A stretch of 64,000 bases of DNA. It comes from Dehalococcoidia bacterium. GTDB lineage: Bacteria > Chloroflexota > Dehalococcoidia > SZUA-161 > SpSt-899. The position numbers and the translations under genes were made by a program. The notes beneath the pieces were generated by a model. It saw only the letters and a program-made list of their open reading frames with translations. It was not told the DNA's origin and ran no database searches. Below are positions 1 to 60,217 of the stretch, one piece after another. Numbering within the stretch: the stretch's first letter is position 1; each line of letters begins with the position of its first letter. Where the stretch lies: contig JBGLNL010000001.1 of the NCBI GenBank assembly GCA_041300025.1, forward strand, positions 1,211,576-1,275,575, read 5' to 3'.

Positions 1-1358
1 ATGCCTCAGGGGTGGCAAAGGCAATGGCCAGGGGAGCCCTCATGGGTGCCCGTGGTAATAGTGGGGTGATCCTTTCCCAGATACTCCGGGGGCTGGCTCA
101 GGGACTGGAAGGAAAGAAATCGTTTTCCTCGCTGGATATAGCCGATGCCCTTCTTCAGGCATCGATCATGGCCGATAAGGCGGTCAGCCAGCCAACCGAA
201 GGAACCATCCTCACCGTCATGCGCGAGGCAGCTTTAGCGGCAAAAGAAGCATCTTCTACTGAGAGTGATAACCTCGAGAGAATAATCGAAGCGGTGGTCA
301 GCGAAGCCCGGGCGTCTGTAGAGAGAACGCCGGATTTGCTGCCCGTGCTGCGAGAATCGGGGGTGGTGGATGCAGGTGGGCAGGGGCTTTACATAATTCT
401 GGAAGGTTTACTGGCTTACCTGCAGGGTAAAGAAATAGCAGAGGCAGGTACCCCATCTGCCGAGTTCGAGGTAAGTACCGCCATTCCCGAAGCGGGAAAA
501 GAGCATATGCGGTATGGATATTGCACCGAATTTCTCCTTCAGGGAACTGCGCTCGATCTGGAAGCGATGAGAGCCAGAATCAGTGAGCTGGGAGAACATG
601 TGCTGGTGGTTGGCGACGAGCGAACTGCGAGAGTACATGTGCACACATTCGATCCGGGGGCGGTTCTGTCTTACGGGGCTGCCCTGGGCACTCTGCATAA
701 GATCAAGATCGATAACATGGAAGAACAACATCGAGAATTTATCGTCAGTCATTCTGAAGAACTACCGCAACCTGAGGGGAATATCTCCACGGTCACGGTT
801 GCTTCCGGGGATGGCCTGATCGAAGTGTTCAAAAGCCTCGGGGCAACATACGTGGTTCCCGGCGGCGAGACCATGAATCCCAGTATTGAGGAACTGCTTA
901 AAGCGGTGGAAAAGGTTCCCGCTGATGAAGTGATCATCCTGCCCAACGATCCCAATATTATGCCTTCTGCTCAAAAAGTATGCGAAATATCGGAAAAGAA
1001 AGTGGCTGTCGTGCCAAGCAGGACCATAATGCAGGGAATCACTGCTTTGGTGGCTTTCAATTTTGAAGATAGTTTTGAAGCTAATTTAAAAACAATGACC
1101 CATGATATGGCGAACGTTCGCACCGGGCGTATTGCCACCGCCGTTCGCTCCATGCGATACAACGATCTGCAGGTAATCGAAGGCCAGATAATCGGCTTTG
1201 CGGATGATGAGCTTGCAGTAGCTGCAAATACCAGTTTTCTGGCTCCGATCTCGGAGCCATCTGCAAGCCGGATACCGGTGGCGGAACCATTCTCGATGAT
1301 GACCTTTTCGACTTCGGCATGTGTGAAGATTTTGCATCCCATCTGTACCAGTATCTGA
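1..1358 (+). CDS. DAK2-domain fusion protein YloV-like. The 5' end lies outside the window and the 3' end is disrupted. The last ~40 codons of the ORF are antisense of the neighbouring desaturase fragment. The real homology ends near 1240.
   Basis: N-terminal GARGNSGVILSQ Dak2/DhaL motif. A long ORF with coding-like composition. The C-terminal peptide FSMMTFSTSA is the reverse-frame reading of AEVEKVIIEN from the minus-strand desaturase. Confidence 0.55.
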   Translation, partial: ASGVAKAMARGALMGARGNSGVILSQILRGLAQGLEGKKSFSSLDIADALLQASIMADKAVSQPTEGTILTVMREAALAAKEASSTESDNLERIIEAVVSEARASVERTPDLLPVLRESGVVDAGGQGLYIILEGLLAYLQGKEIAEAGTPSAEFEVSTAIPEAGKEHMRYGYCTEFLLQGTALDLEAMRARISELGEHVLVVGDERTARVHVHTFDPGAVLSYGAALGTLHKIKIDNMEEQHREFIVSHSEELPQPEGNISTVTVASGDGLIEVFKSLGATYVVPGGETMNPSIEELLKAVEKVPADEVIILPNDPNIMPSAQKVCEISEKKVAVVPSRTIMQGITALVAFNFEDSFEANLKTMTHDMANVRTGRIATAVRSMRYNDLQVIEGQIIGFADDELAVAANTSFLAPISEPSASRIPVAEPFSMMTFSTSACVKILHPICTSI

Positions 1359-2119
1359 TGGGCGGCGTGGGCTATCTGATGAGTGCCGCCCTTGTTGAAT
1401 CCCAGCACCGGAAGCTGTGCTCCCAGAGCTACGGTCTCCATCCCCATTCCGGGATCATTAACATCGGTCGCTGCCGAGACGACGAACCGCGCATGGCAAT
1501 ATTGCAACTCTTCACTTTCCCACATCTCGCGTATCTGACGCAGCGGAGAGGATTTAAGCGTCAGCGAATCGGGAACCATGTCCGCTTCGAGAAGCTTGTT
1601 GAAAACGCCCATTTGCCGCTCTATAATTGCCGGGTCGAGGAAATGCTCCGGAGGATAGAAGAATTGATCGACCATTACTCGATACACTTCGTCACTGTGA
1701 AATGTGTTGTACAGCTTGAGCCAGTGTTCGGCGTCTCTTTGCGAAAAACGAGCGATCTCTTTGGCGGTGCGTTCCTGGGTTGGATCATGCTTGATGCTGT
1801 AAATGGCAAGGCAGGTATCGTTATCGGCAAAGGCAGCCCCATCGGAGCACAGATATTGTTCCCACTGGGCGCCGTAATCCCGGAATTCGGGAAAGTCTCG
1901 ATAGATGGGAGCATAGTACAATGGCATAATGATATTGGCATGGGTATTTCCCCGGAAGCCGGGAGCCGAAATTTCCTCGGTAGCCAGGCATCCGCCGATC
2001 TCGTGCCGCCTCTCAAATATACCCACGCTCATGCCGCCGTATTTGATTAAATGCATGGCAAGAAACAGGGCTTTGGTTCCTCCGCCGATAATTACCGCAT
2101 CAAAGGTTTTGTCAGGCAT
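971..2119 (-). pseudogene. FAD-dependent oxidoreductase of the CrtI/phytoene-desaturase-like family (COG1233), paralog copy 1. It is 3'-truncated: only the N-terminal ~298 codons are homologous.
   Basis: FDAVIIGGGTKALFLA Rossmann motif. About 85 percent amino-acid identity to the first 300 residues of the 2151..3884 gene. It then diverges into antisense of the yloV-like gene. Confidence 0.6.
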
Positions 2120-2150
2120 ATTTAATCCTCATTTCCGTGAGAGAAAAGTT

Positions 2151-3884
2151 TTATTCGACGGTTACCTTTAGCGAATCTTGAGTTCTTTTGATAACCTTCC
2201 TGACTTCAGCGACCAGAGATTCTGTTTCATCATTGCCCAATTTTTGCCAGGGACCTTCCAACCCCATATCCGCGGCAATCACTTTGTAGCAGTTGTACGC
2301 CTCCGCAGATCCGGCATTTCCACCCGGAGGCCAGGCGGAGCCGGTGGCATAGAATTTTTTCACTGGAGTGCGGTAATTGGCTAGTTCGGGAATGGGCCGG
2401 TTCTCCGCAAGCTGAAAAACAGAACGGTCGAGCGTTCCGGTGTTCCCGTGAGGCGCGAGATTCTTCATGCGCAGATTGTCGTACGGGCTGTTGCTGTCAA
2501 CACCTATCAGGTTGTCCGGGGTCATGTTAGGAGCATACTGTTGCCACACCGTCATCATGTCTTCGATATATCGTTTTTTAATTTCCAGCCACTCCGCTTC
2601 AGTGTGCGCGCTGGCGGGCGGTGCCTGCATCTCATTCTGGGCCACATGCATACCGGGTGGCGCAAAGGCCGGGTCAGCGAGGCTGTTACAACATACCACA
2701 GGGCTGAAATCTTCTAACGGCGGGAACCTGCCCAGATTCATCCATCGGCACTCGTTGGCGATATGCTCTGGCCCGGCATCCGCGCCCAGTCCCAGCCAGA
2801 ACGTCTCGTGGATATCAGGATTAAAGGCCTCTGCCTTGTACTTTGGCGCTTCATGGAGAGCAAAACTGCACCACATCAGACACGAAATGTGCCGGGCGGA
2901 AAGAAGCTCGATACGGCGCACGACTTTTCCGGTGAAGTGCTCCCGACCGATCATGTCGAAGACAATCTGCTGCGGGCTAAGCCCGGCAGATACCACCAGT
3001 TTCCGCGCACCAATCTGGGAACCATCGGTGAGGCGAATGCCGGCGGCCGTTCCGTTTTCGATGATGACTTTTTCAACTTCCGCATGAGTGAAGAAACTGC
3101 ATCCCAACCGGACCAGAATTTGATGCGCCGCATGGGCGACCTGATGGGTCCCGCCTTTGTTGAAACCCAGCACAGGAAGCTGGGACCCGATGGCAACCGC
3201 CTCCATGCCCATTCCCGGGTCATTTACATCTGTGGCTGATGTGACCACGAACCGGGCGTGGCAGTACTGTAATTCCCGGCTGTCCCACATCTCGCGAATT
3301 TGGCGGAGCGGCGATGACTTCAGTGTGAGCGAATCGGGGACAACGTCTGCCTCCACCAGTTTTCCGAAGACGCTCATCTGCCGTTCAATGATACCGGGGT
3401 CGAGGAACCGTTCGGGCGGATGGTAAAACTGATCGATCATGACTCGATAGAATTCATCACTATGGAATGCGTTATAGAACCTGATCCACTTTTCAGCGTC
3501 CTTTCCTGAGTATCGGGCGATCTCTCTGGCGGTGCGTTCCTGGGTTGGGTCATACTTGGCGCTGTAGATGGCAAGGCACGTATCGTTGTTGGCAAAGCAG
3601 GCGCCGTCGGAACAGAGGTACTGATCCCATTGCGCGCCATAATCCCAGAATTCAGGGAAGTCTCGATAGATGGGGGCATAGAACAATGGCATTATGATAT
3701 TGGCATGGGTGTTCCCCCGGAAGCCGGGAGCCGAAGTTTCCTCAGTGGACAGGCACCCGCCGATCTCGTGCCGCCTTTCAAATAGGCCCACGCTCATGCC
3801 GCCGTATTTGATTAAATACATGGCCAGAAACAGGGCCTTGTTCCCGCCCCCAATAATTACTGCATCAAATGTTTCGTCAGGCAT
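2151..3884 (-). CDS. FAD-dependent oxidoreductase, CrtI/phytoene-desaturase-like family, full length 577 aa
   Basis: N-terminal GxGxxG dinucleotide-binding motif (DAVIIGGGNKALFLA). Length and C-terminal region are typical of COG1233. Confidence 0.85.
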   Translation of the reverse strand: MPDETFDAVIIGGGNKALFLAMYLIKYGGMSVGLFERRHEIGGCLSTEETSAPGFRGNTHANIIMPLFYAPIYRDFPEFWDYGAQWDQYLCSDGACFANNDTCLAIYSAKYDPTQERTAREIARYSGKDAEKWIRFYNAFHSDEFYRVMIDQFYHPPERFLDPGIIERQMSVFGKLVEADVVPDSLTLKSSPLRQIREMWDSRELQYCHARFVVTSATDVNDPGMGMEAVAIGSQLPVLGFNKGGTHQVAHAAHQILVRLGCSFFTHAEVEKVIIENGTAAGIRLTDGSQIGARKLVVSAGLSPQQIVFDMIGREHFTGKVVRRIELLSARHISCLMWCSFALHEAPKYKAEAFNPDIHETFWLGLGADAGPEHIANECRWMNLGRFPPLEDFSPVVCCNSLADPAFAPPGMHVAQNEMQAPPASAHTEAEWLEIKKRYIEDMMTVWQQYAPNMTPDNLIGVDSNSPYDNLRMKNLAPHGNTGTLDRSVFQLAENRPIPELANYRTPVKKFYATGSAWPPGGNAGSAEAYNCYKVIAADMGLEGPWQKLGNDETESLVAEVRKVIKRTQDSLKVTVE

Positions 3885-3916
3885 GGAAGCCCCCTTATTC
3901 TGAGGAATTGTTTCTA

Positions 3917-4390
3917 TTAAATCTCAATGGTTTCGTACTGATTGAAACCGTATGCCTTGTAATCGAGATAAGAGATGATTTTGGGCGTTATCTTGTAAAA
4001 AGGTACCGGGCCCACCCTTTGAGCCCATTCCAGCATATCGGTGTATTCCAACATCCAGGGGAATTTCTCCAGAAAAAGCTGGCCTGCCCTGGCAATTTCA
4101 GCCTCGTCAGTTACAATCTCTGCCTTCCCGGACAGTTGAACGGCCTTGGTGTTGTTGAAGCGGTAGTAATCCTTGAATGAAGCCAGGCTTACATTGGGGT
4201 TCTTATCCACGTTGATCTTCTTCTGGCTCTGAGGATCCATGGCAAAATAGATAGTCAAACCGTCATTGACATAGCTGATGCCGCTGGCTTGTGGTGTGCC
4301 GTCTGCGCGCACAGTAGCCAGGGTGCCGCCGTAGTGCTTCTTCATAAACTGGATAATGATTTCCTTCAGCTCCTCTTTGCTTGTTTTCAT
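3917..4390 (-). CDS. pyridoxamine 5'-phosphate oxidase-like FMN-binding split-barrel protein
   Basis: 157-aa ORF. The GGTLATVRADGTPQASGISYV motif is typical of the PNPOx-like/NimA family. Confidence 0.55.
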   Translation of the reverse strand: MKTSKEELKEIIIQFMKKHYGGTLATVRADGTPQASGISYVNDGLTIYFAMDPQSQKKINVDKNPNVSLASFKDYYRFNNTKAVQLSGKAEIVTDEAEIARAGQLFLEKFPWMLEYTDMLEWAQRVGPVPFYKITPKIISYLDYKAYGFNQYETIEI

Positions 4391-4488
4391 GATCGCTCCT
4401 TTGGAAATTTTATTTCAATGGGGCTCTCTTGTTTCGAGTTACCCCTGTTGAGCCGGAAAAATAGTTTGGTATTAAAACTATATTTGAA

Positions 4489-4965
4489 CTACTTGTCCTC
4501 TTTCATTTTTGTATCAACAAAAGCTTCCAGTTTGGCCAGTATTTCGTTCACTATAACCCATTCACCAAAGCTGATCTCCCGAGCGTAATGCGAGACATAT
4601 TCTCTGGCATAGTTCTCGTAACCGCTGGCGGCTTTTTCCCCTTTATCAGTGAGGTTGAGCTTTGCCTTTCTTCCATCCTGATTTGACTTTGTCTTTGTGA
4701 GATAGCTTCTTTCCACCAGACGATTGACCACCGGAGAGATAGTCCCTTTAGTGAGCCCCAGTTGCTGAGAAAGCTCTGTTACAGTGGTACCCGGATAATT
4801 GCCTACCGTATGGATGATCTGGATATCCGCCAGTGGCAGGCGTTCTCCGGTGCCGAATTCGCTCGGAGTTTGGCTCATTCGGGCAATCTTATTAATAAGC
4901 CGCTGGAAGCGCGCTGCGGTGTGGAACCGCACGACCTCATTTTCTTCAGGCGATTGACCAAACAT
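4489..4965 (-). CDS. MarR-family transcriptional regulator
   Basis: Winged-helix region TVTELSQQLGLTKGTISPVVNRLVERSYL. Length ~150 aa. Confidence 0.75.
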   Translation of the reverse strand: MFGQSPEENEVVRFHTAARFQRLINKIARMSQTPSEFGTGERLPLADIQIIHTVGNYPGTTVTELSQQLGLTKGTISPVVNRLVERSYLTKTKSNQDGRKAKLNLTDKGEKAASGYENYAREYVSHYAREISFGEWVIVNEILAKLEAFVDTKMKEDK

Positions 4966-5176
4966 GATGGTGAAAATGATAAGGTAACCAAACTATTTTG
5001 TCAAGGGGGATAGAACCATGTTTGGGAGAAATATCTGTCTTAAGGTGTAATACCTTTATCGAATGTTGAATTGAGAGCACGTGTAAACCTCCCCTTTTAG
5101 TACCAGTCTAAATTAGAGGTTCTCAAGCCCATTACCCCGAGCGTTAGCTTCACTTTGTGAATATTCTTGCTTCCCC

Positions 5177-5205
5177 TTGAATTTGTTCCTGAAATGATGT
5201 ATGAT
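5177..5205 (+). promoter_or_regulatory. sigma70-type promoter for vapB (TTGAAT-17-TATGAT)
   Basis: -35 TTGAAT at 5177-5182. 17-nt spacer. -10 TATGAT at 5200-5205. About 35 nt upstream of the RBS and ATG at 5239. Confidence 0.5.
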
Positions 5206-5238
5206 CTTACCAGTAAGATATAATCTCAGGAGATTAAT

Positions 5239-5505
5239 ATGGCTACTAGCACTGCAACAACAAAAATGTCTTCTAAAGGTCAGATCGTTATCCCTGAAGA
5301 AGTACGAAAGAAACTCGGACTGAAAACAGGTGACAAGTTTTATGTAATGGGTGAAAATGATGTCGTTGTTCTCAAAACGATATCTTCTCCGTCCATGGAT
5401 CAGTTTACTAGCCTGATTAAACAAGCACGTAAACAATCCAGGAGTGCTGGAATAAAGCCATCTGATATTCAGAACGCCATAACCGACGTTCGGAAACGCA
5501 AGTGA
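5239..5505 (+). CDS. vapB: AbrB/SpoVT-domain antitoxin (VapB-like)
   Basis: SKGQIVIPEEVRKKLGLKTGDKF swapped-hairpin AbrB motif. 4-nt overlap with the downstream PIN gene. Confidence 0.7.
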   Translation: MATSTATTKMSSKGQIVIPEEVRKKLGLKTGDKFYVMGENDVVVLKTISSPSMDQFTSLIKQARKQSRSAGIKPSDIQNAITDVRKRK

Positions 5506-5906
5506 AAATCATACTTGATACCAATGTTGTTATTTCAGGGATATTCTTTACTGGACCGCCCTTTGAAATATTAAGTGCATGGCAACAAGGCAAAGTAAAG
5601 ATAGTAATGTCACCAGATATACTCGATGAATATTACCGGGTATCCGATGAACTCCAGGAAAGGTTTCCTGAGATTGATGCTGAACCATTGCTTACTTTAA
5701 TAGCCAGCAACTGTGAAATGATTGAGAATACATCTCTTCCCTTTCCTGTTTGTGAAGACCCAGACGATGATAAATTTATTGCATGTGCAGTTTCTGGTAA
5801 TGCACAATGCATTGTCAGTGGGGACAAGCATTTATTGACTGTGGGTACCTATGAGAATATATCAATAGTAAATCCCAGTACATTCCTAAAAAAGTATCTG
5901 AATTAA
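5502..5906 (+). CDS. vapC: PIN-domain toxin VapC
   Basis: MKIILDTNVVI N-terminus with conserved acidic residues. 134 aa. Coupled to the AbrB antitoxin. Confidence 0.8.
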   Translation: MKIILDTNVVISGIFFTGPPFEILSAWQQGKVKIVMSPDILDEYYRVSDELQERFPEIDAEPLLTLIASNCEMIENTSLPFPVCEDPDDDKFIACAVSGNAQCIVSGDKHLLTVGTYENISIVNPSTFLKKYLN

Positions 5907-5915
5907 GGGGACACC

Positions 5916-6125
5916 CTACTTAATTTTACGTTTGTTTCTTCGTTTCTTCCTTGGGCCTTTGGGACCAGTCTTTTGCTTTGTCAAATCCCGATTGAGTAGG
6001 GTACCACAACTTTCGATGAATTCCCTTGTTCCCAGCGGTCGACCGGTATGTTCATGTTTTTGAAAGATTTCGCCCTCCACGGGATCTTCCTTTAGAAATT
6101 CCCTCCAGTTATCGATAATATTACT
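5916..6125 (-). pseudogene. possible C-terminal remnant of a transposase or mobile-element protein; identity uncertain
   Basis: The ORF tail HTGRPLGTREFIESCGTLLNRDLTKQKTGPKGPRKKRRNKRKIK resembles the basic C-terminal tails of some transposase families. The upstream part of the ORF overlaps the luxR-like gene. Confidence 0.25.
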
Positions 6126-6141
6126 CAAAGGGCTATCTGCA

Positions 6142-6663
6142 ATGAATTCATCTTTCCTTTCCCCCAAGGACCGCAAGAGGGCAGAGGAATTGCTGCAGAG
6201 GCATCGGGAAAGGCTGGAAAATGTGATAAAAGAGCGCACTTCCAGCCTTGAGGAAGCGAACACCGCCCTGCGGGTCATGCTGAAAACAGGGGATCAGGTC
6301 AAGAATGAAGTTGAAAAAAATGTATTGTTCAATGTGAAAAGATTCGCCCTTCCCTATCTGGAGGAACTGAGAAAAAGTGAACTGAACAGCAGGCAGAGAT
6401 CGTACCTTGATCTGCTTCAGCAGAGTCTGGATAAGGTGACCGAGCCTTTCCTGCACGGGGTATCCACCCAGTTTCTTACCCTTACTCCCACCGAGGTAAT
6501 GGTAATGGACATTATAAAGGAAGGCAAAACCACCAAGGAAATCTCCGGATTGATGAACATGTCCATTCGCACGGTTGAAACTCATCGATATAACATCCGC
6601 AACAAACTCGGCTTGAAGGATCGAAGCGTCAATCTGCGGACTTACCTTTCCTCCATAGAGTGA
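6142..6663 (+). CDS. LuxR-family transcriptional regulator with coiled-coil N-terminus and C-terminal HTH
   Basis: C-terminal TPTEVMVMDIIKEGKTTKEISGLMNMSIRTVETHRYNIRNKLG matches the LuxR/GerE HTH. Confidence 0.7.
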   Translation: MNSSFLSPKDRKRAEELLQRHRERLENVIKERTSSLEEANTALRVMLKTGDQVKNEVEKNVLFNVKRFALPYLEELRKSELNSRQRSYLDLLQQSLDKVTEPFLHGVSTQFLTLTPTEVMVMDIIKEGKTTKEISGLMNMSIRTVETHRYNIRNKLGLKDRSVNLRTYLSSIE

Positions 6664-6820
6664 TACTTAGAACGCCTAAGTAATAACTAGCAATCAATCC
6701 AGTATTGCACCATCTCTATTTTCATGCTAGAATTACTTCGCATTCTCGAAATAAATTCCTGTTGCCCCCGACCATACGTAGCAGGATTACGAGGATGAAT
6801 TTGAGCGAAAGGAGGCATTT

Positions 6821-8554
6821 ATGGCCAAGGAAGAAACATTTGATGTAGTGATAATTGGCGCGGGCCATAATGGAACCACCACAGCAGCTTATCTGGCCAA
6901 AAGCGGGCTGAGTGTCCTGGTGCTGGAAGAGCGGCCGGAAGGAGGCGGGGCACAGGAAACCTGTGAACCCATCGCCGGAGTTCGCATCCAGCCACATGCC
7001 ATCGGGAATTATGGCGGTTCTGCGCCGGGATGGGAACAGCTGCAGTTGTGGCGATATGGATTCCGCATGGACTATAATCCTCGCGAGCCGGTGCAGTTCG
7101 ATATAGAACGCGGACCGATGGCCCGTCATGGAATCGTCAAGGTCTCTCAAGAGGATATGATGGGATGGGCCAAGATCGTCGGCCTTACCACCGATCCGCC
7201 ATTCTATCGGGACTTACTGAGGGCGACCTTCTGGACCCCGCCGCATCCAAGTTACGTCGAACTGGACGAAAACACCATTCCATACATGCAGGTATATCGG
7301 GATCACCTGCCGGAACTCTGGACCAAAGAGATGCTGGAATGGACCATGTTCGATATCATGGAGCAGTATATCAAGAGTGAGCCCTTCATGATCCACCAGG
7401 CCTATATTGCCAACGTTTCCGGTGCGTTTGCCCACTTCCCCGGCGTCGGTGTCCCGGCCATAGAATGTGTGGCCACCGTTATGCCGCCGGCTGTGGCAGA
7501 CCCGGTTGCGGCACGTGGTAACATGCATGGTTACTATCACGCAATATTCCGCTGTGCCGTTGGCAATGGCGCGATTATTAAAACCTGTTGCCCCGTTGAA
7601 GAGATCATTATTGAACACGGGCGGGCGGTTGGCGTTCGCCTCAGAGATGATGCCACCTGGGGACCAAAACGCGTCAATGCTCGCAAGGCAGTGATCAGCG
7701 CCTGTCATATCAAACCGACATTCCAGAAGCTGATCGGGCCCAAGAACATCGATTCCGGCCTGATGCAGAAAATCAATGACCTCAGCCTGAAGGGCGGCAG
7801 CCTTCACATGACACATTTCCTCACTAAAGAGGACCTTCGTTACAAGCCCCAGTTCAAGTGGCGGAAAGAGGAGCCCCACGAATTCACCGGCGCGTTCTAC
7901 TGCATGGAGAACAAGGAGATATACTGGAAGAACCTGGAATGCGTACTGGGCAGACAGGAAAATCTGGATATTCCTCCGGAAGAATGCATGTGGGGTATGG
8001 TGGCCCATACGAATTACGCCCCCACTCAACCCCAGTCCACACGCCCCGGCGCTTATGTCAACGGTCCGCTGTGGATCATGGTACCTACACCGGAATACAA
8101 CGTCGATGGTCTTGATGCCATGGACAAGACTGCGGCCGATAAGAAAAAATGGGAAGAATACGCCCGCGCCACGCTCTCCTGCATTGTGGAGAACCTGGAT
8201 GACGATAACCTTATTCAAATCTGGAGCGACACCCCCCGCGAGCAGGAATTCCGTAACACGGGCATGCTGGGTGGTTCCTGGTATGGCACCCGATGCGACC
8301 GCGACGAATGGTGGAATCAGAGGCCTTTGCCGGAGATGGCACGTTACCGCGTACCGGATATCGACGGCCTTTACCTGGCACACCAGTCAGCAGCCCACCC
8401 CGGCGGCCTGTGCCTGATGGCAGTCGCCTACAACCTGATGCACATTCTCATAGAGGATGGCGTTGTCGAGCCCGGCCCCTGGTGGTACGCATCACCATGG
8501 TACGTCCCTGAAGAAGGAAAAATTTCCGCCGTGCCCGGTCAGGGGAGAGTCTAA
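6821..8554 (+). CDS. FAD-dependent oxidoreductase, CrtI/phytoene-desaturase-like family
   Basis: [23 protein letters not shown] Rossmann motif. 577 aa. AGGAGG RBS. Confidence 0.85.
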
Positions 8555-8571
8555 AAGGAGGTATGAAAAAA

Positions 8572-50211: not shown

Positions 50212-50341
50212 AGTTGACACACCTCCTCGGTACACTTTAGTGTACCACTCATTACCACTTAGGCGCACTTTAAGAATAGTATTGTACCCCCCCCTCCCCG
50301 CATTTGTCAAGTCTTATCGGGGGCCATCGGTTAGGCTAGAA

Positions 50342-50434: not shown

Positions 50435-50443
50435 CGGCGGCAA

Positions 50444-50908
50444 TCAGGAAGAGGCAAACATATTCTGGGTGATCTTCAGGCTGGGGCTGTCGGCCCGGCT
50501 CCAGAATTCCTCGAATATGCGATCGTATCCGGTTGACTTGATCTTCCACTCACCATTGATTTTGGCATATTCGTCATGATAGAAGGCTGCCCCTCTCATG
50601 GACCAGTTCCCTTGCGTATCTATCAGGTAATCTTCCAGCGCCCATGTCCCTTTGGCGGTGGTGTTGCCGGTGATTTCAATTTCAGGATGATGTCCCTGAT
50701 GCATGCTCAATCGAGTGTATGGCAGGCCCTCTTTGAAGAACTCTATAATGGCATCCCTTCCGTTATAACTGTGCGCCCCGCCGGAAAAGCTGCTTCTGGC
50801 ATCCTCGGCGAAGCATTGCCCAAGTTCATCCCATTTTTTGGAATCGAGACAGCGAAAGTATTTGTATTTCAGCCGTCTGATAGCTTCAATTTCCTCGAGT
50901 TTGTTCAT
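50444..50908 (-). CDS. SnoaL-like / NTF2-like domain protein
   Basis: 154 aa, alpha+beta cone-type fold sequence. Confidence 0.6.
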   Translation of the reverse strand: MNKLEEIEAIRRLKYKYFRCLDSKKWDELGQCFAEDARSSFSGGAHSYNGRDAIIEFFKEGLPYTRLSMHQGHHPEIEITGNTTAKGTWALEDYLIDTQGNWSMRGAAFYHDEYAKINGEWKIKSTGYDRIFEEFWSRADSPSLKITQNMFASS

Positions 50909-51021
50909 AATAAATGTCTCCTCGTTTCAAGAATGCTTCGGGTGTGGTTTTCCCAAAAGATCAATTGTCATGTATTATATGAATCGGATGATTCAATGTC
51001 AATCGGCTTAAGGGGGATGAA

Positions 51022-53001: not shown

Positions 53002-53010
53002 GTAAATTTA

Positions 53011-53140
53011 TAGGGAACCTATTCAGCCCCCTTGTGTCCCCCAGCTTCAAATCCCCTCTCTTTCCCCCTTTGTGAAAGGGGACGAAAAGGGAGTTTGGGA
53101 ATACAAGGGGGTTGAAAAAGACTTATTGGACAGCCTGTTT
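53011..53140. repeat. GC-rich hairpin repeat element, variant copy E, with GGGGGTTGAAAAAGA...GACAGCCTG module
   Basis: GGAACCTATTCAGCCCCCTTGTGTCCCCCAG; TTTCCCCCTTTGTGAAAGGGGA. Confidence 0.6.
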
Positions 53141-53165
53141 CAATGCTTTCAAAAACGGCTACTTT

Positions 53166-54872
53166 CTACTGATCGGAGATGGAAGCGACGTTGCGCAGCA
53201 CCTCGTAGGGGGTGGTAACGCCCTGCTTTACTTTCAGCATGGCGTTATGCCACATAGGAACCATTCCGTCCTTTATTGCCTGAGCCCGTATTTCACTCGA
53301 ATTGGCATTATTGAGTATCAGCCGTCGCAAATCCTCAGTAACTGTCATGAGTTCATGCACGCCGGTACGGCCACGGTAGCCGGTGTTGGAACAGATGCTG
53401 CATCCTCTGCCGTAGAAAAACTCCTGACGCTTTTCCTTCATCTCCTGCTCGTATATCAGCCGTTCTGCCGGCGGGGCAGGCATTGACTTCTTGCAATGCG
53501 TACAGACTCGCCTTACCATCCGTTGCGCCACTACTCCTAAAAGAGAGGAGGCTATGAGGAATGATTCCACGCCCAGATCCATAAGCCGGTATATCACACC
53601 GACGGAATCGTTTGCGTGAATGGAAGAGAGCACAAGGTGCCCGGTAAGAGCGGCCTGAATAGCAATTCCGGCGGTTTCACCATCACGTATCTCACCAACC
53701 AGAATGACATCCGGGTCAAGCCGCATCAGTGCCCGCAATCCGCTGGCAAATGTCATACCGGCCTGATTATTAGTTTGAATCTGGCTTATATCATTAAAGT
53801 GATATTCTACCGGATCCTCAATTGTCATGATATTGCGCTCATACCGGTTGAGCTGCCCCAGTGCAGAATACAGAGTAGTAGTTTTACCGGATCCAGTGGG
53901 CCCGGAGAGCAGTATCATACCATACGGAGCATTTATAATCTTATTGAATCTCTCAAGGTCATGGGCCATAAATCCGAGTTCGGTCAGATTCAGCAATGCC
54001 ACTGATTTATCCAGCAACCGCAGCACCATTTTCTCACCGTGGACCGTATCTGTAGTGGCGGCGCGGATATCTATCTCTCTGCCCTCCCCGATATTTACGG
54101 AAAACTGCCCGTCCTGTGGCCTGCGCCGGTCGGCGATATTCATTCCTGCCATGATCTTCATTCTGGAAATCAGAGGCGGGTGAACATCCAGCGGCAGCGA
54201 CATCACATCATGCAGGATGCCGTCTATGCGATATCGAATGCGCAATCTATCTTCCTGTGGTTCAATATGTATATCGGATGCCTTGTCGTTGGCTGCCTGG
54301 GCCACGAGCATGTCTACGGTACGGGCGATGGGACTATCGGCAGCGAGATCCTGATTTGATTGCACCTTCATTTTTTTCGCCTCGGCCTCGAGGGCCATGG
54401 CGATATGTCCAACTTCCTTCTCTATAGCACCCTCACCCGTCTTGTAGTTTAGATTTATATAAGCTTTGATCTCGCCAGGATCGGCCTGCACCGGATTGAT
54501 GGGCATTCCCACCTTAGCTTTGATATCTTCAAGCAACTCTTCCTCGGTCGGGTCTGCCATAGCTAGCACCAGTTCATCATTAACTATCGCTATGGGCATG
54601 ATATTCGCTTCCCTGGCCTTCTCGGCTGAGATGAGATTCAATGCGCGCTGCTCCACTTTGTATTCGCCCAGTGAAACAAAGGATGTCTCCTGCTGCATAC
54701 TGGTAATGAGCCCCAGTTCATCCGCGGTTATCAAGCCTTCCTCAGAAAGGAGTTGCTCGATATTCTTATGGCTCTCCTCTCGCTTTGACAGAAGTTCCTC
54801 ATACTTCTCGGCAGTTACTATCTCAGCTTCCTGTAATAGCTTGCCAAGTTCTCTTTCACCAATTTTGGCCAT
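53166..54872 (-). CDS. pilB: GspE/PilB-family type II secretion / type IV pilus assembly ATPase
   Basis: T2SSE N-terminal domain. Walker A GPTGSGKTT. Tetracysteine motif CxxC...CxxC. 568 aa. Confidence 0.9.
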   Translation of the reverse strand: MAKIGERELGKLLQEAEIVTAEKYEELLSKREESHKNIEQLLSEEGLITADELGLITSMQQETSFVSLGEYKVEQRALNLISAEKAREANIMPIAIVNDELVLAMADPTEEELLEDIKAKVGMPINPVQADPGEIKAYINLNYKTGEGAIEKEVGHIAMALEAEAKKMKVQSNQDLAADSPIARTVDMLVAQAANDKASDIHIEPQEDRLRIRYRIDGILHDVMSLPLDVHPPLISRMKIMAGMNIADRRRPQDGQFSVNIGEGREIDIRAATTDTVHGEKMVLRLLDKSVALLNLTELGFMAHDLERFNKIINAPYGMILLSGPTGSGKTTTLYSALGQLNRYERNIMTIEDPVEYHFNDISQIQTNNQAGMTFASGLRALMRLDPDVILVGEIRDGETAGIAIQAALTGHLVLSSIHANDSVGVIYRLMDLGVESFLIASSLLGVVAQRMVRRVCTHCKKSMPAPPAERLIYEQEMKEKRQEFFYGRGCSICSNTGYRGRTGVHELMTVTEDLRRLILNNANSSEIRAQAIKDGMVPMWHNAMLKVKQGVTTPYEVLRNVASISDQ

Positions 54873-55138
54873 TGCGACTATCCTTCTATCTTTAATCCTT
54901 CAGGTTATTGGGGATATCCCATCGACCCGTTTGGAGCCACCTTTCCGATGATTCCTCTATTTCTTTTTACCCTTTTTCTTGCTCCCTGAATCTATAATCT
55001 CATCGAGGTCATCAGCTTTCGTCTTCTTCACGGGGGCTTTCGGCGCGCGAGGTATATTGCCCTGCATATCATCTATTTCGGAATCCATTAGAACATCAGG
55101 TATATTTAGTGGAAAAAGAACCTTCCATCGGTGGGGTC

Positions 55139-57022
55139 ATGGCTCAACTGGATAAGACCTTCCCCACGATGGATTGCGCTATCTGAATACTCGGCCCCAA
55201 AATGATGGATGCCGGTCGGCATCCCAGGATTAAACTGCTGACCTTGAGCGAGGTCGAAGAGGTCAACGGTTATGTTGGCAACTTCAAAGTAAAAGTGCGC
55301 AAAAAGGCAAGATACGTCAATGAGAAAGAATGCACTGCCTGTAACGATTGCGCTGAAGTTTGCCCGGTAACCTGTCCGGATGAATATCAGGCTGGACTCG
55401 GCACCAGAAAGGCTATTTATATCCCCTTCGCTCAGGCGGTGCCATCGGCTTATGTGATAAACCCGGAAAATTGTCTGGGAAGTAATCCGATTGCCTGCGG
55501 TAAATGTGCCGAAGCCTGCGAGAAAAAATGCATCGATTTCGATATGCAGGATGAGATAATCGAGCTCGATGTTGGAACCATCATCGTGGCTACCGGTATG
55601 GATGTGTATGATCCCACGGAGATGGATGAATACGGTTATACCCGGTTTGATAATGTGGTCACCAGCCTGGAATTTGAGCGTCTGATCTGTGCTGATGGCC
55701 CGGCGGAAGGCCACCTCGTGCGGCCCGGCGATCGCAAAACGCCCCGGCGCATCGGATTTATCCAGTGTGTCGGGTCTCGAATGGAGAATCGGGGGAATCC
55801 CTACTGCTCCAATATTTGCTGCATGAATACAGTGAAGGATAGCCTGCTCCTCAAGGAGCACTATCCCGATACCGAAATATTCGTGTTCTATATAGATATG
55901 CGGGCCTTCGGCAAGGGATTCGAAGCTATGCTGAAACGCAGCCACGAGGTTGGAGTGAATTATATCCGCGGCCTGCCCGGCAGTGTCATGGAAGACCCAA
56001 AAACCGGCAACCTGATCGTGGATGTGGAGAACACCACCGCCGGAAGGCTGGAGCAATATAATCTCGATCTGCTGATTCTCGCTGTAGGACTGGTGCCGCG
56101 CGCCGAAGGGGAGCATCTTCGCCAGATATTGAACCTTTCCAAGACAAGCGACGGATTCCTGATGGAAGCCCATCCCAAATTAAGGCCTGTCGATGCCCCT
56201 ACTCCGGGGGTTTTTCTCGCCGGGTGCGTGGAATCGCCCAAGGATGTTAAGGACAGCGTTACTCAGGCCAGTGCGGCCGCTTCCCGGGCTTCCGTTATTC
56301 TCAATTCCGATAAACTTACCGTAGAAGCCATCACCGCAGTGGTCGATAAGGAAAAATGCACCGCCTGCGGAGTCTGTGCCCGCGTGTGCCCTTACGGAGC
56401 CATCAAATTTGATAAGGAAGCAAAAGCCCCGGCGGAAGTGATCGAGGCCATGTGCGCCGGTTGCGGCGTCTGTGCCGCCGAGTGCCAGTTCGATGCTATC
56501 AGCATCCGTCATTTCAGTGATGAAGCCCTGATGGCGCAAACTGAATCCGCGGTGGCGGAAAGAGCCGACGAAAGAATAGTTGTCTTTGCCTGCAACTGGT
56601 GTTCCTATGCCGGTGGAGACGGGGCAGGCACATCACGCCTGCAATATCCGCCCAATTCCCGCATCATCCGGACCATGTGCAGCGGGCGAGTTGATGAGAA
56701 GTTCATTCTGCGGGCATTCGAACTGGGAGCAGCGATGGTGCTGGTTTCCGGCTGCCATTTTTCTGATTGCCACTACATCGATGCCAATCGGTGGGCCCAG
56801 CGCCGGGTGGATAAATTATGGAACAAGATGGAGAAGCTGGGAATACGTCCGGAGCGGTTGCAACTGGAATGGATCAGCGCGGCCGAAGGGCAGAAGTTTG
56901 CCAGTGTGATGCGCGAGATCGAAGGCATGCGCCGGAAAGTCACTGCTGAAGAGATTGAACATACGAAAAAAGTGCTCAAAGAGGATCGGGAGAAGAGGGC
57001 TAAAAAGGAAAAGAAAAAGTAG
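55139..57022 (+). CDS. hdrA: HdrA-like heterodisulfide reductase subunit fused to an MvhD domain. Probable selenoprotein (in-frame TGA at 55184). The N-terminal FAD-binding region is missing.
   Basis: The frame through the TGA reads [48 protein letters not shown], matching the HdrA consensus with Sec at the Cys position. A GGATGCC-GGTC-GGCATCC hairpin lies 21 nt after the TGA. The C-terminal [14 protein letters not shown] region is MvhD-like. The conventional ORF is 55202..57022. Confidence 0.6.
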
Positions 57023-57026
57023 CTGG

Positions 57027-57350
57027 GGAACCTCTGATTAAGTAGTGCAGGAAGCATCCTGCCGGGGGTCTGGGGGTATCCCCCAGTTTCGATCTCAGGC
57101 TGTCCGAAAATTTAGAAAAAGTGTCATTCTGAGGAATTTATGATGAAGAATCTCCGAGGCTCAGTTTTATAAAGAGATTCTTCATCCGCCCGAGGCGGAT
57201 TCAGAATGACATACCCGGGAGTTTTCAGACAACCTGAGACAAGAGGGCTGAAAAAGAGTTTCGGACAGACTGTCCGGTGAGCTTGGGAGATGGATTCCGG
57301 CTCGGAGGCCGGAATGACATATCATATTGAGTTGTCGGAGTAATAATATA
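57027..57350 (+). repeat. GC-rich hairpin repeat element, copy F, plus adjacent large inverted repeats
   Basis: GGAACCTCTGATTAAGTAGTGCAGGAAGCATCCTGCCGGGGGTCTGGGGGTATCCCCCAG. GTCATTCTGAGGAAT...ATTCCTCAGAATGAC and GAAGAATCTC...GAGATTCTTC inverted repeats. Confidence 0.65.
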
Positions 57351-57408
57351 GAGTCAGGAGTCAGAATACCCTTGACATTTCACTGATAACTGACAACCCG
57401 GAGAAAAC

Positions 57409-57543
57409 ATGCCAGAACAGGATAATTTCAAATGTCTTCGCTGCGGGTACGAGTATTCCCTCCCCAGGCCGGAGAAAAACAAGCTTGAGGAGCGGACATG
57501 TCCCAAGTGCCGCAGCAACAGCGTTCGAAAGATGGGGGAGTAA
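57409..57543 (+). CDS. 44-aa zinc-ribbon protein
   Basis: MPEQDNFKCLRCGYEY...CPKCRSNS: two CxxC pairs. Embedded between repeat elements. Confidence 0.4.
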   Translation: MPEQDNFKCLRCGYEYSLPRPEKNKLEERTCPKCRSNSVRKMGE

Positions 57544-57545
57544 TA

Positions 57546-57830
57546 CTTCAGGCTGTCTGAAAAGAGGTGCAGGATTCTTCCTGCCGGGGGTTTTGGGGGT
57601 GTCCCCCAATATAACCTTCCCCCATGATTGGGGGATTGAGGGGGTTGAAAAAGAGTTTTTAGACAGCCTGATTGAGGTGAGGGTGAATATCTCATTTGGT
57701 CGCTCTCATTCACTATGCTGGCAACCATGCTTCGCATTTCCCCCTCACTCTAACTCTCTCCCCCGAGGGGAGAGAGGACTTCATTTCCCCCTTTGGCAAA
57801 GGGGGAAATGATCAAAGGTTCCTTAACTAA
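57546..57830 (+). repeat. GC-rich hairpin repeat element, composite copy G, with additional perfect palindromes
   Basis: CAGGATTCTTCCTGCCGGGGGTTTTGGGGGTGTCCCCCAAT...GGGGGTTGAAAAAGAGTTTTTAGACAGCCTG. CTCTCTCCCCCGAGGGGAGAGAG. TTTCCCCCTTTGGCAAAGGGGGAAA. Confidence 0.7.
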
Positions 57831-57861
57831 TGGTTAGCCCCCAAATAACAATAAATATAAT

Positions 57862-57890
57862 TTGACAATCGATTCATTTGTGGGTATATT
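57862..57890 (+). promoter_or_regulatory. sigma70-type promoter for mazE (TTGACA-17-TATATT)
   Basis: -35 TTGACA and -10 TATATT, ~20 nt upstream of the GGAGA RBS and ATG at 57910. Confidence 0.55.
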
Positions 57891-57909
57891 GTAATTACAT
57901 GAACCACAA

Positions 57910-58176
57910 TTGGAGACGAAAATGACGACTTTAATCAGAATAGGAAATTCGCAGGGTGTCCGTATTCCAAAGGCGATAATCGAGCAAGCACGATTAGAAG
58001 ACAAGCAATTGGAATTTAAAATAATCGACGACGGACTGTTAATTCAACCGGTTAAGAAGACCAGAGAAGGCTGGAAAGAACAATTTGATAAAGCCCTTAA
58101 ATCCCAGGATTCAAGCGAAGCAGATCAGGAGTGGTTGGACGCCTCATTGGTAGATGAAGAGGACTGGGAATGGTAA
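57910..58176 (+). CDS. mazE: MazE/PemI-type antitoxin (AbrB-fold)
   Basis: MTTLIRIGNSQGVRIPKAII. Confidence 0.8.
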   Translation: METKMTTLIRIGNSQGVRIPKAIIEQARLEDKQLEFKIIDDGLLIQPVKKTREGWKEQFDKALKSQDSSEADQEWLDASLVDEEDWEW

Positions 58177-58499
58177 AAAAAAATGTTCATAGATTTGATA
58201 TTTGGCTGGTTCAACTTGATCCGACACAAGGTTCTGAAATTAAGAAAACAAGGCCTTGTGTTGTTATCTCCCCTGATGAAATGTCTGCACTGAAGACCGC
58301 GATTGTTGCTCCAATGACATCCAAAGGATTTAGCTATCCAACCAGAATTCAATATACATTTCAGGGTAAAAAAGGATTGATCCTGCTTGACCAAATGAGA
58401 ACCGTTGACAAATCCAGGTTAATTCAAAAACTTGGTGTAATTTCTCAAAGCGCGCAGATTAAGACTATCAATTGTTTACAAGAGCTTTTCGCGTATTAA
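58170..58499 (+). CDS. mazF: MazF/PemK-type endoribonuclease toxin
   Basis: IWLVQLDPTQGSEIKKTRPCVVISPDEM. 7-nt overlap with the antitoxin. Confidence 0.85.
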   Translation: MVKKNVHRFDIWLVQLDPTQGSEIKKTRPCVVISPDEMSALKTAIVAPMTSKGFSYPTRIQYTFQGKKGLILLDQMRTVDKSRLIQKLGVISQSAQIKTINCLQELFAY

Positions 58500-58589
58500 G
58501 GGGCTAACCACGGCATTAAGGCGACGGCAAAAAGCCGTTGCCCCTTATTCTGGCGTGTTATCTGTCCTGGAAAAACTGAATGAAACCCT

Positions 58590-59138
58590 ATGGCCAATAC
58601 AGCAACCGAAGATCCTAAGAACTCGATCAAACTGTATGATGCTGGCGGTGGATACCTGGTCACCCTTGTACTTGGAATTCCTGTTGCTGGTTCTATAGCA
58701 GATGGAATCTGGAATTATGTTGTTCTCACCTTAACCCTTCATCCGCTGAAAAAATACTTCAGGATAGAAGAGCCTATCGAAACAAGCGTAGATTCTCAAT
58801 TGTGGTTTTTACGCCGACGATCAGAAATAACTACAGGTGACAGAATCTTCTATAGTTTTATTATTACTATCGCTGGTATATTGATCGACGCCGTGTATTT
58901 CTTTATGGTTTGGAACCCATTCAGTGAGGGAGAAAATGGATCATGGTGGGAAGCTAGAGTTGACATGGGCTTTCAAATTGCACTTATACTGGTACCAATA
59001 ATCTTACTTGGATTATCTAACTACTACTTGGCATCACGATTTCTCGAACTCAATCACAGGCATTCTCTCATCGTTGCATCGAGCATGGCGTTTTTTACTG
59101 CTCCGTGGTTATTACTCTTGGTACCGAGTTTGTCTTGA
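58590..59138 (+). CDS. hypothetical membrane protein
   Basis: 182 aa with 4-5 predicted TM helices. AT-rich context. Confidence 0.45.
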   Translation: MANTATEDPKNSIKLYDAGGGYLVTLVLGIPVAGSIADGIWNYVVLTLTLHPLKKYFRIEEPIETSVDSQLWFLRRRSEITTGDRIFYSFIITIAGILIDAVYFFMVWNPFSEGENGSWWEARVDMGFQIALILVPIILLGLSNYYLASRFLELNHRHSLIVASSMAFFTAPWLLLLVPSLS

Positions 59139-59414
59139 ATAAGAAGTGTACAGATAACGAGCTAATCAACCTGAATCCTCGCCGCTGGCAGATGCGGTGA
59201 TCTGCACAAAATCCGCCTTTTCCCCTATTTGATCAAATTACGGTTGACTTTTATGTTCTATACGATATATACTAAACCGTAGAATTACTCTATGTAGAAT
59301 GTCAATACTTATTTATTTATAGTATTCAAGGATCATAAGGCCAAGCTAAGTTAATACATAGTAAATAAAAACTTAACAGCCATAATTTGGCCAAATAAAA
59401 GGTGAGATTTGGGA

Positions 59415-59512
59415 GCGACAGGCTGCGCAGCCTAGCTAAGGAACCTCTGAATAAGTGGTGACTTCGGGGTTTGGGGGGTACAGGGGGTTGATCAGAGTTT
59501 CCCTAATTAATC
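59415..59512 (+). repeat. GC-rich hairpin repeat element, copy H
   Basis: AGGCTGCGCAGCCT palindrome. GGAACCTCTGAATAAGTGGTGACTTCGGGGTTTGGGGGGTACAGGGGGTTGATCAG. Confidence 0.7.
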
Positions 59513-59601
59513 TGGAGGAGGTGGACACTATTTAAGCAAACAGATTTTTTAATTTATCAATACCCCAATCTGGCACATCACGAATAATAAAATGGAGGAA
59601 T

Positions 59602-59757
59602 ATGTTGTCTATGAAGAGATCCATGCAAATTATCCCCTTAATTGTCATAATTGTGGTACTAATAATTGGAGCCAGTGCACCCGTGGCAGGTGCCACAGAA
59701 CCATCGAAAGGCGTAGCTAAGGAAAATGCGATTACGGCAGCAAAGCTCTTCACTTGA
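59602..59757 (+). CDS. 51-aa ORF with signal-peptide-like N-terminus (candidate small secreted peptide)
   Basis: GGAGG RBS. MKRSMQIIPLIVIIVVLIIGASAPVAGA followed by TEPSKGVAKENAITAAKLFT. It overlaps the 3' end of the minus-strand ORF. Confidence 0.2.
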   Translation: MLSMKRSMQIIPLIVIIVVLIIGASAPVAGATEPSKGVAKENAITAAKLFT

Positions 59758-60204
59758 AAGGTCTTTTGTTCCCCCGCTCTGTAACAAAAGGGCCTCATTG
59801 ACCGCATCAGCGATGGTATATACACCATGAACCGCTACTCCCGCCGCTTCGTGATAGCCGAAAATCAGATAATCGGCAAGATCGCTTTGCCTGAGTGCCT
59901 GTTCCTGCGAGTAAAGCTCAGCAAGGTTCCTGCGGGTGAGCATATCCCCATCGCGGGCTTCAATAATAAAGCCAACCCATAAAACTTCCTGAGTAAAGGT
60001 GTCTTCAATGTGATCGGACAGTTTCACTACGTCATTGCCGGTGGGATTGTCGCTGGCAGTTTCTTCCGGGGCCATCATCATCATGGGGAAAAGCAGGGCA
60101 ACGGTTAACAGGAGAACTATAAGAATAACCCGGCCTGAACGCCTTTCAAGGGTGTTCCCCAGCCAGCCATAAAATCCTTTCCGTTCGCTACGCTCTTCAG
60201 CCAT
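59659..60204 (-). pseudogene. N-terminal fragment of an MMPL/RND-superfamily exporter (TM1 plus the start of the periplasmic domain)
   Basis: MAEERSERKGFYGWLGNTLERRSGRVILIVLLLTVALLFP.... Only ~140 aa are plausible. The tail looks like frame run-on. Confidence 0.4.
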
Positions 60205-60217
60205 TACCAAATCTCAT

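Follow-up and report, generated by a model that had tools for sequence, protein, structure and literature searches.

Why many genes within a short stretch of a Dehalococcoidia genome end abruptly where their neighbours begin is the question raised by the window, i.e. the whole 64,000-nt stretch of DNA analysed here. A preliminary description had counted at least 10 such junctions and attributed them to ongoing reductive genome decay, each junction representing a single deletion of the end of one gene, the spacer and the start of the next; a systematic assembly or construction artefact was named as fallback. The abrupt gene ends were confirmed at a rate far above chance: 13 sharp breakpoints, cutting at least 19 genes, were detected across the window.

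Breakpoints were placed by alignment (blastn or blastp) to near-identical relatives. Same-species sequences came from seven sibling MAGs (GCA_041299895, 041299945, 041299955, 041299985, 041300005, 041300015 and 041300065) and the Logan assemblies of SRR28346262, SRR28346264 and SRR28346265. Nine correspond to junctions already described, namely 1228/1229 (previously ~1240), 11100/11101 (11095-11262), ~16019/16020 (~16000), 25612/25613 (25618), 35131/35132 (35107), 39833/39834 (39714), 45728/45729 (45744), 55096/55097 (55097) and ~59748/59749 (~59790), while four had not been flagged (6166/6167, 20874/20875, ~30294/30295 and 50423/50424). The breaks are base-precise; two stretches, of 32 nt (25613-25644) and 14 nt (53065-53078), match neither neighbour. 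No N runs are present in the window, and the joins carry no N linker. The segments delimited by the breakpoints are designated A to N.

Genes cut at the breakpoints

Contigs from short-read metagenomes end at assembly-graph breaks, typical sites of which are regions of strain variation as well as paralogous genes, IS elements and dispersed repeats. Breaks 1229 and 11100 lie in CrtI-like paralogs, mutually ~80 % identical. At the first, a YloV/FakA-like gene (12..1228, + strand) is cut at its 3' end and lacks ~69 C-terminal profile positions (Pfam FakA-like_C aligned over 2-150 of 216, NCBIfam YloV profile over 59-461 of 530); it meets, as described before, a CrtI-like FAD oxidoreductase paralog (1229..2119, - strand) retaining 297 of 575 aa. 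At the second, the other CrtI-like gene (10357..11100, + strand) has lost its C-terminal half (248 of 495 aa kept), with blastp identity to its 495-aa relatives ending after aa 248, and stands next to a NuoE-like stub (11101..11262, - strand; 54 of 161 aa). In four of four relatives the match ends at 11101 and their own sequence runs into NuoE/NuoF.

Family III CoA-transferase paralogs are interrupted by breaks 35131 and 39833. The former gene (34358..35131, - strand) keeps the C-terminal 257 of 407 aa (Pfam CoA_transf_3, 152-366 of 366) and indeed adjoins a ComF gene reduced to its zinc ribbon, with 116 native aa versus 234-239 in its relatives and Pfam DZR_2 as the only domain; in four relatives the match ends at 35131 and is followed by up to 9 kb more native sequence. 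The latter (39412..39833, - strand), correctly recognized as a CaiB-type C-terminal stub, keeps 139 of 405 aa. Break 6166 lies in an IS200-type Y1 transposase (5916..6166, - strand) of which 82 of 227 aa are left, facing the C-terminal ~164 of 710 aa of a LuxR-family gene. No exact protein record was found for the 82-aa transposase tail, although the look-up had been expected to lead to the original contig. Break 50424, which is intergenic, lies at the border of a REP-like dispersed repeat in contig L001. Only these last two breakpoints, 6166 and 50424, are associated with a mobile element or repeat; the other joins are located in unique coding sequence, and the REP-like copies of the window sit inside segments.

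At 16019/16020 an HlyD/MacA adaptor (14778..16019, - strand) and an SBP5 solute-binding protein (16020..17285, + strand) stand head to head, both truncated at their 5' ends as reported. The adaptor lacks ~67 N-terminal positions, the MacA profile (68-363 of 371) being aligned from the first retained residue. The possibility that the adaptor is intact, with a TTG start codon and a good ribosome-binding site at 15959, was considered and rejected, given the alignment from position 68 and the lack of an N-terminal membrane anchor. At least 113 N-terminal positions are missing from the SBP5 protein (OppA profile alignment beginning at 114): five of five homologues align only from nt ~16020, and one of them has ~268 extra N-terminal residues. 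These homologues from JGI metagenomes share at most 67 % identity with the fragment and served only to place the start of homology.

At break 20874/20875, the left end of segment F, a sulfotransferase-like gene is reduced to 40 of its 187 aa. The right end of F holds the first part of the second subunit of an HGD-D dehydratase (25507..25612, + strand). This partner subunit had been reported as absent; it is indeed mostly missing, yet 35 of its 466 aa are present, and four relatives run on into the complete 466-aa gene. Behind the join and its 32 unassigned nt, TrpE (25645..26307, - strand) is reduced to its N-terminal 221 of 496 aa, whereas its T-box leader (26355..26624, - strand; Rfam T-box, 115.5 bits) is intact, in agreement with the first reading. 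At the other end of the same segment (~30294/30295), an FtsX-type permease is cut after aa 890 of 1020.

At 45728/45729 the two losses proposed earlier were both verified: an acetyl-CoA hydrolase/transferase (44707..45728, - strand) retains ~340 of 441 aa, its N-terminus being absent, and an ice-binding-like (DUF3494) protein (45729..46307, - strand) lacks its C-terminus (Pfam Ice_binding 1-163 of 208; NCBIfam IBP 67-227 of 275). The N-terminal stub of an MMPL-type transporter (59749..60204, - strand) likewise proved to be one, with 152 of 858 aa kept; aa 1-152 share 98 % identity with the 858-aa relative, which diverges from there on.

Break 55096/55097 separates the C-terminal 45 aa of a 1382-aa protein, whose gene is located upstream of a T2SS-E ATPase gene, from what had been taken for an HdrA without its FAD domain. 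The cut at 55097 stands, the nature of the gene does not: it is a selenocysteine (TGA) HdrA-MvhD fusion gene, cut ~168 residues into the protein. Its translation from 55097 aligns to HdrA 5ODC_A from residue 170, and the in-frame TGA at 55184-55186 aligns with Cys197 of that protein. The 606-aa HdrA ORF (HdrA2 profile 199-776 of 777) has equal length in the relatives because gene callers stop at the in-frame TGA; its interpretation as a normal short form was dropped in view of this codon and a conserved HdrA motif upstream of it.

Intact counterparts in same-species assemblies

Intact versions of the cut genes were found in relatives of the same species. At 12 of the 13 junctions, relatives of 98-99.8 % nucleotide identity have the gene in full length on one side at least. 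Beyond the joins they run for 0.7-9 kb into genes absent from the window, with the neighbouring window segment remaining unmatched; adjacent segments of the window are thus non-adjacent in independent same-species assemblies (12 of 13 joins compared on at least one side). Segment B, for example, is 99.8 % identical (blastn) to contig JBFYUM010000016.1 of GCA_041300065.1 (L016, 6342..1405), whose match begins at 1229 and which extends beyond both ends. Segment F is 98.6 % identical to contig L018 (680..5417) and segment L 99.4-99.7 % identical to five contigs, three of which run past 55096 into the 1382-aa gene. Against species-representative genomes, the T2SS-E protein found relatives in Dehalococcoidia MAGs at 83-87 % only. 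For four cut genes the lost half was sought, and it was absent from the rest of the window and from the protein clusters of these genes.

The interiors of the segments are well preserved. In 15 internal genes the length is identical to that in relatives, and mismatches are located mainly at third codon positions (for example 36/9/8, 23/3/1, 13/2/0 and 6/1/0 for positions 3/1/2), the surface-protein gene of segment J being the exception; differences are mostly transitions. Artificial mutation as the source of the 0.2-2 % differences is ruled out by this third-position and transition bias. The only lesion within a segment is a 118-bp deletion at 41241/41242, which splits a cohesin-like gene of 1612 aa, beginning 27 nt inside segment J, into 488 and 1100 aa (blastn to L025, 933..2340 and 2459..6944).

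The 10 truncated or chimeric ORFs for which exact look-up gave a match are all placed on one 1,771,430-bp NCBI contig, on which 20 of 20 checked intact window proteins are also located; matches to this contig include the 229-aa TrpE ORF and the window proteins of 1100 and 380 aa. Each truncated form occurs on a single contig, the intact versions on 2-7 contigs. The public protein collection contains ORFs that span junctions, identical in every residue, among them a 306-aa CrtI-like ORF with 58 read-through residues, the 229-aa TrpE ORF and a 173-aa LuxR ORF starting upstream of its join. A literature search on the sibling MAG and run accessions retrieved no paper.

Segment lengths and origin of the joins

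Segment A (1..1228) is the tail of a preceding piece and segment N (59749..64000) runs off the window. The 12 complete segments in between measure 4938 (B, 1229..6166), 4934 (C, 6167..11100), ~4919 (D, 11101..16019), ~4855 (E, 16020..20874), 4738 (F, 20875..25612), ~4682 (G, 25613..30294), ~4837 (H, 30295..35131), 4702 (I, 35132..39833), 5895 (J, 39834..45728), 4695 (K, 45729..50423, limits set by the matches of its neighbours to contigs L025 and L001), 4673 (L, 50424..55096) and ~4652 bp (M, 55097..59748). Their coefficient of variation is 0.069 (n=12); in 200,000 simulations with random breakpoints it never fell below 0.30. Length falls with position (Kendall tau -0.64, p=0.003; -0.85, p=5e-5 after removal of the sole outlier, J). 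The order is imperfect: H and especially J exceed their predecessors, and G is shorter than I. A strictly descending series therefore fails at G/H/I and J, exceptions which N-containing scaffolds or a two-part J also leave unexplained. Relatives diverge inside segments at 12797 and at 53064-53079, where in segment L their contigs end or diverge beside a hairpin or repeat; the length series is unaffected by these points, which suggests that it reflects the contigs of this particular assembly. Near-uniform and near-descending lengths are the pattern expected of length-ordered contigs concatenated without N spacers.

The observed breakpoints, intact genes in relatives, non-neighbouring flanks, size pattern and truncated forms unique to one record are best explained by a 1,771,430-bp Dehalococcoidia MAG record that consists of separately assembled short contigs joined head to tail without N spacer, a reading to which we assign a probability of about 80 %. 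The contigs were presumably concatenated on purpose or by a pipeline, and not joined through an error of the assembler. Contigs of here ~4.65-4.94 kb would have been listed roughly from longest to shortest and then butted together. Contigs end where the assembly graph breaks, and genes at their ends are therefore incomplete; butting would set two unrelated half-genes side by side, across which gene callers would read chimeric or shortened ORFs. Since no N linker marks the joins and the record looks contiguous, such read-through ORFs are the consequence. Partial genes at MAG contig ends and concatenated pseudomolecules resemble the window in their arbitrary cuts, in the tendency of breaks towards paralogs, IS elements and repeats, in the absence of the missing halves and in segments that, like the contigs in assembler files, are sorted by size. 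The window differs in that its length order is not strict and in lacking N linkers, which pseudomolecules usually have.

False joins made by an assembler, scaffolder or gap-closer, including long-read or amplification chimeras and gaps collapsed to zero, are an improbable origin. Joins without spacer, the imperfect size order, the short unassigned stretches at two joins and the deletion at 41241/41242, which resembles a collapsed scaffold gap, would all agree with it. Misassembly, however, normally occurs at shared repeats, whereas most joins are located in unique coding sequence with nothing shared between the two sides, and nothing in the working of an assembler would favour segments of nearly equal and decreasing size. 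Amplification or long-read chimeras likewise join unrelated loci at sharp points, but they are irregularly spaced, are usually lost in the consensus and do not form size-sorted blocks of 4.65-4.94 kb. That the mosaic was introduced in preparing the 64-kb window and is absent from the public record is highly improbable, as the junction-spanning ORFs exist in the public collection as products of the 1,771,430-bp contig.

Massive deletion and rearrangement in one Dehalococcoidia strain, leaving a truncated gene at each scar, is hardly tenable. The truncations do stand in the deposited sequence, one true frameshifting deletion (41241/41242) is present and one break lies inside an IS200 transposase. 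Real joins would, however, imply ~360 scars in 1.77 Mb and the cutting of about a third of the genes, including trpE, HdrA, the NuoE-like gene and transporters, even though every cut gene is intact in relatives diverged by only 0.2-2 %. Single deletions as originally proposed are contradicted by native flanks of up to 8.6-9 kb in relatives that do not contain the neighbouring segment. Decaying genomes, such as those of Mycobacterium leprae or recently host-restricted symbionts, have gene bodies interrupted by frameshifts and stop codons, are under relaxed selection and remain syntenic with relatives near their lesions. The window shares with them the density of incomplete genes; its lesions, in contrast, are confined to evenly spaced joins with non-syntenic flanks, no pseudogenization is seen in the segments, substitutions reflect purifying selection, and equal-sized, size-ordered blocks are beyond any deletion process. 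Joins that are physical through very recent chromosome fragmentation and re-ligation, or through heavy deletion, are scarcely credible, with hundreds of scars in an otherwise undecayed remainder.

That the short genes could be ordinary short forms of their families is refuted by the alignments for all but pyrB, since the other cases have full-length relatives 98-100 % identical over the shared part, with identity stopping at one codon. PyrB fused to the zinc domain of PyrI (61115..62305, - strand; 396 aa, intact in segment N) had been listed among the truncations, but represents a normal architecture (PF02729, PF00185 and PF02748 with ~100 % coverage) conserved in over 100 protein clusters of 375-427 aa, and shared down to ~50 % identity in several phyla.

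Meaning for the record and its users

The cut genes mark spacer-free joins of ~4.8-kb assembly pieces and hence a database artefact instead of genome decay; the artefact named as fallback fits the evidence best. The gene truncations at neighbour boundaries are no biological feature of this organism and hold no new biology. Their value is one of quality control: the record seems to consist of several hundred short contigs strung together without spacers, with inflated contiguity statistics and false gene neighbourhoods at each join, from which chimeric and truncated proteins enter databases (at least 10 ORFs of the window are already contained in a collection of 15 billion proteins). Spacer-free concatenated records can be recognized simply, by testing for a size series and by relatives running through the joins. 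Such a record could lead to wrong conclusions on synteny, on pseudogene content and on genome reduction.

Partial genes and the positions of the breaks

According to the ORF listing and scans with Pfam and NCBIfam profiles, the bacterial gene set of the window looks normal, yet many genes cover their family profile only in part. FakA/YloV is devoid of its C-terminal end and the ice-binding-like protein of its C-terminus, TrpE retains only the N-terminal domain, ComF only the double zinc ribbon, and most of the N-domain is missing from acetyl-CoA hydrolase. Two CrtI-like FAD oxidoreductases comprise only the N-terminal half (Amino_oxidase positions 7–260 and 2–229 of 443), two family III CoA-transferases keep profile positions 152–366 and 300–366 of 366, and the matches of the HlyD/MacA adaptor and the SBP5 binding protein begin at positions 68 (MacA) and 114 (OppA), respectively. 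The basic observation of the preliminary description, gene truncation at the boundaries to neighbouring genes, is therefore correct and is extended here by further junctions. Likewise borne out were the absence of the partner dehydratase subunit (35 of 466 aa are left of the second HGD-D subunit) and the intactness of the T-box leader upstream of trpE (26355–26624 (-); Rfam RF00230, 115.5 bits). The fusion of pyrB to the zinc domain of PyrI (61115–62305, 396 aa) had also been listed as a truncation; it is located inside a segment, i.e., a block between two junctions, and represents an architecture conserved in >100 protein clusters of Dehalococcoidia, other Chloroflexota, Deltaproteobacteria and Armatimonadota.

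Separate parts of the window show 98–99.8 % nucleotide identity with seven sibling MAGs (GCA_041299895, 041299945, 041299955, 041299985, 041300005, 041300015 and 041300065) and with Logan assemblies of SRR28346262, SRR28346264 and SRR28346265; the nearest species-representative genomes are Dehalococcoidia MAGs with 83–87 % protein identity. The blastn blocks against contigs of the close relatives stop at single reproducible positions, past which the relatives' contigs carry on: 1229–6166, 11101 onward (four contigs agree), 20875–25612 (with 25612 shared by four contigs), a block whose end at 35131 is common to four contigs, 39834–45728, and 50424–53064 together with 53079–55096 (three contigs agree at 55096). 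At base level, the junctions appear as a clean switch from matching to unrelated sequence. Other breaks were placed by protein alignment to near-identical full-length relatives: CrtI-like at 11100 (after aa 248 of 495), TrpE at 25644/25645 (after aa 221 of 496), a permease at ~30294 (after aa 890 of 1020), CoA-transferase at 39833 (last 139 of 405 aa kept) and MMPL at ~59748 (after aa 152 of 858); the SBP5 break (~16020) was placed by more distant homologues. In total, 13 junctions were detected, four of which (6166/6167, 20874/20875, ~30294/30295 and 50423/50424) had previously been missed. Short stretches at or near joins match neither flank (25613–25644, 32 nt; 53065–53078, 14 nt), the latter belonging to a hairpin (CCCCCTTTGTGAAAGGGG). 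A very long antisense "shadow" ORF (14778–17378 (-), 866 codons stop to stop) opposite the SBP5 gene (15465–17285 (+)) exists because the HlyD frame remains open across the join, and shows how joins create spurious long ORFs.

The HdrA-MvhD gene at 55097

The claim that HdrA is truncated at 55097 is right in substance, since the join takes away ~168 N-terminal residues, though the 606-aa ORF (55202–57022) has 606-aa counterparts in the relatives. The 35 codons upstream of this ORF stay in frame and, with TGA read as Cys or Sec, align with HdrA 5ODC_A from residue 170, the TGA standing opposite Cys197. This in-frame TGA (55184–55186 (+)) lies within the conserved HdrA motif DCAI-U-ILGPK, and a 7-bp hairpin (GGAUGCC GGUC GGCAUCC) begins 23 nt downstream. 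In all relatives the start is called after the TGA, where gene callers split HdrA-MvhD. Judged from these sequence features, the gene (55097–57022) probably encodes a selenocysteine-containing HdrA-MvhD fusion in a member of the Dehalococcoidia.

Deposited record and segment sizes

Exact-sequence look-up located all 20 intact window proteins with source checked on a single NCBI contig of 1,771,430 bp, as well as ten truncated or chimeric ORFs, including the 306-aa CrtI-like protein, 229-aa TrpE, 250-aa and 100-aa CoA-transferases, 202-aa ice-binding protein, 181-aa MMPL stub, 173-aa LuxR, 124-aa ComF and 331-aa acetyl-CoA hydrolase. Several of these read across a junction; the junctions therefore reside in the deposited record and do not stem from cutting of the window. 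No truncated form was seen outside the 1.77-Mb record, each being present on one contig only; for intact proteins, up to seven contigs were counted.

The lengths of the 12 complete segments are 4938, 4934, 4919, 4855, 4738, 4682, 4837, 4702, 5895, 4695, 4673 and 4652 bp. These lengths have a coefficient of variation of 0.069 (0.024 if the 5895-bp outlier is left out); the minimum in 200,000 simulations with an equal number of random breakpoints was 0.30. Length drops along the window (Kendall tau -0.64, p=0.003; without the outlier -0.85, p=5e-5). No deletion or rearrangement process leaves such equal-sized, size-ordered blocks, and exactly this pattern would result if contigs of a length-sorted FASTA file were joined end to end, which is the favoured reading (probability roughly 0.8). 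Within segments, relatives diverge at 12797/12798 and 53064–53079, both adjoining repeats or hairpins at which several relatives' contigs end. These divergences reflect strain rearrangement linked to repeats or, alternatively, contigs that are chimeric in one of the assemblies; the size series is uninterrupted there, which suggests that it reflects this assembly's own contigs.

Several joins fall into an IS200-type transposase, CrtI-like paralogs (~80 % mutual identity), CoA-transferase paralogs or the edge of a dispersed repeat. Such sequences commonly break short-read assemblies, and several closely related strains in the same samples would fragment assemblies as well. Five paralogous CrtI/amine-oxidase-like FAD-dependent oxidoreductase genes (495–596 aa) form two clusters (1229–3884, 6821–11100) with ~77–80 % nucleotide identity within a cluster; two of the five sit at contig breaks. 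The dispersed intergenic element (~100 nt, both strands, copies 80–93 % identical) contains short palindromes (CCCCCAATCxTGGGGG and GGGGGACACCCCC), resembles REP or MITE elements and matched no Rfam family at gathering threshold. Copies are located at 21393–21517, 34197–34311, 38903–38984, 47796–47902, 57046–57085, 57549–57677 and 59437–59507, and in relatives' contigs L001 (8486–8589, 11273–11480), L026 (531–634) and L005 (2661–2755); relatives' contigs often end beside such copies. Imperfect tandem repeats (46746–47102, period ~86–115 nt, 65–85 % identical) precede a pair of Asp23-family genes and extend into its start; an apparent ribosome-binding site and start codon are present in each unit.

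Alternative origins of the joins

Instead of plain concatenation, an error of the assembler or scaffolder is retained as an unlikely origin, because length order is not strict (segment G, 25613–30294, is shorter than I, 35132–39833; H, 30295–35131, is longer than G; J, 39834–45728, exceeds the series by ~1.2 kb), the joins in the window bear no N linker, and the 32-nt and 14-nt stretches are unmatched.

The preferred interpretation of the preliminary description, ongoing reductive genome decay, is rejected. A single deletion removing the end of one gene, the spacer and the start of the next fits no junction with both contexts judgeable; past the breakpoints, relatives run on into genes found nowhere in the window. 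The 9 kb beyond 35131 comprise the remainder of the CoA-transferase gene, two MtmB-like genes and genes for two short-chain dehydrogenases and two OYE-type reductases; 8.9 kb follow beyond 45728 (enoyl-CoA hydratase, MaoC, thiolase and others) and 6.6 kb beyond 11101 (NuoE, NuoF and formate-dehydrogenase-like genes), and 8.6 kb of other genes precede 50424. The missing halves of four cut genes were absent from the window, and their protein clusters held no further fragments from the same record. The segments themselves are healthy: the lengths of 15 internal genes are identical to those of the relatives' gene calls, and nucleotide differences concern mostly third codon positions, with transitions exceeding transversions. 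Their sole lesion, a 118-bp deletion at 41241/41242 (versus 2341–2458 of L025, a contig of GCA_041299985.1) with no obvious flanking direct repeat, frameshifts the gene for a 1612-aa cohesin-like surface protein into ORFs of 488 and 1100 aa; either a scaffold gap that was collapsed or a genuine difference between strains could account for it. With flanks that are not neighbours, healthy segments, truncated forms unique to one record and size-ordered blocks, real biology is very improbable. A preparation artefact is given a similarly small probability.

The construction or assembly artefact, previously considered only as a fallback, is thus supported by the size series, the relatives reading through the joins and the record-unique truncated forms. 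The truncation pattern is not a biological feature, and it matters only as a caution regarding the NCBI record and the chimeric proteins that stem from this record.
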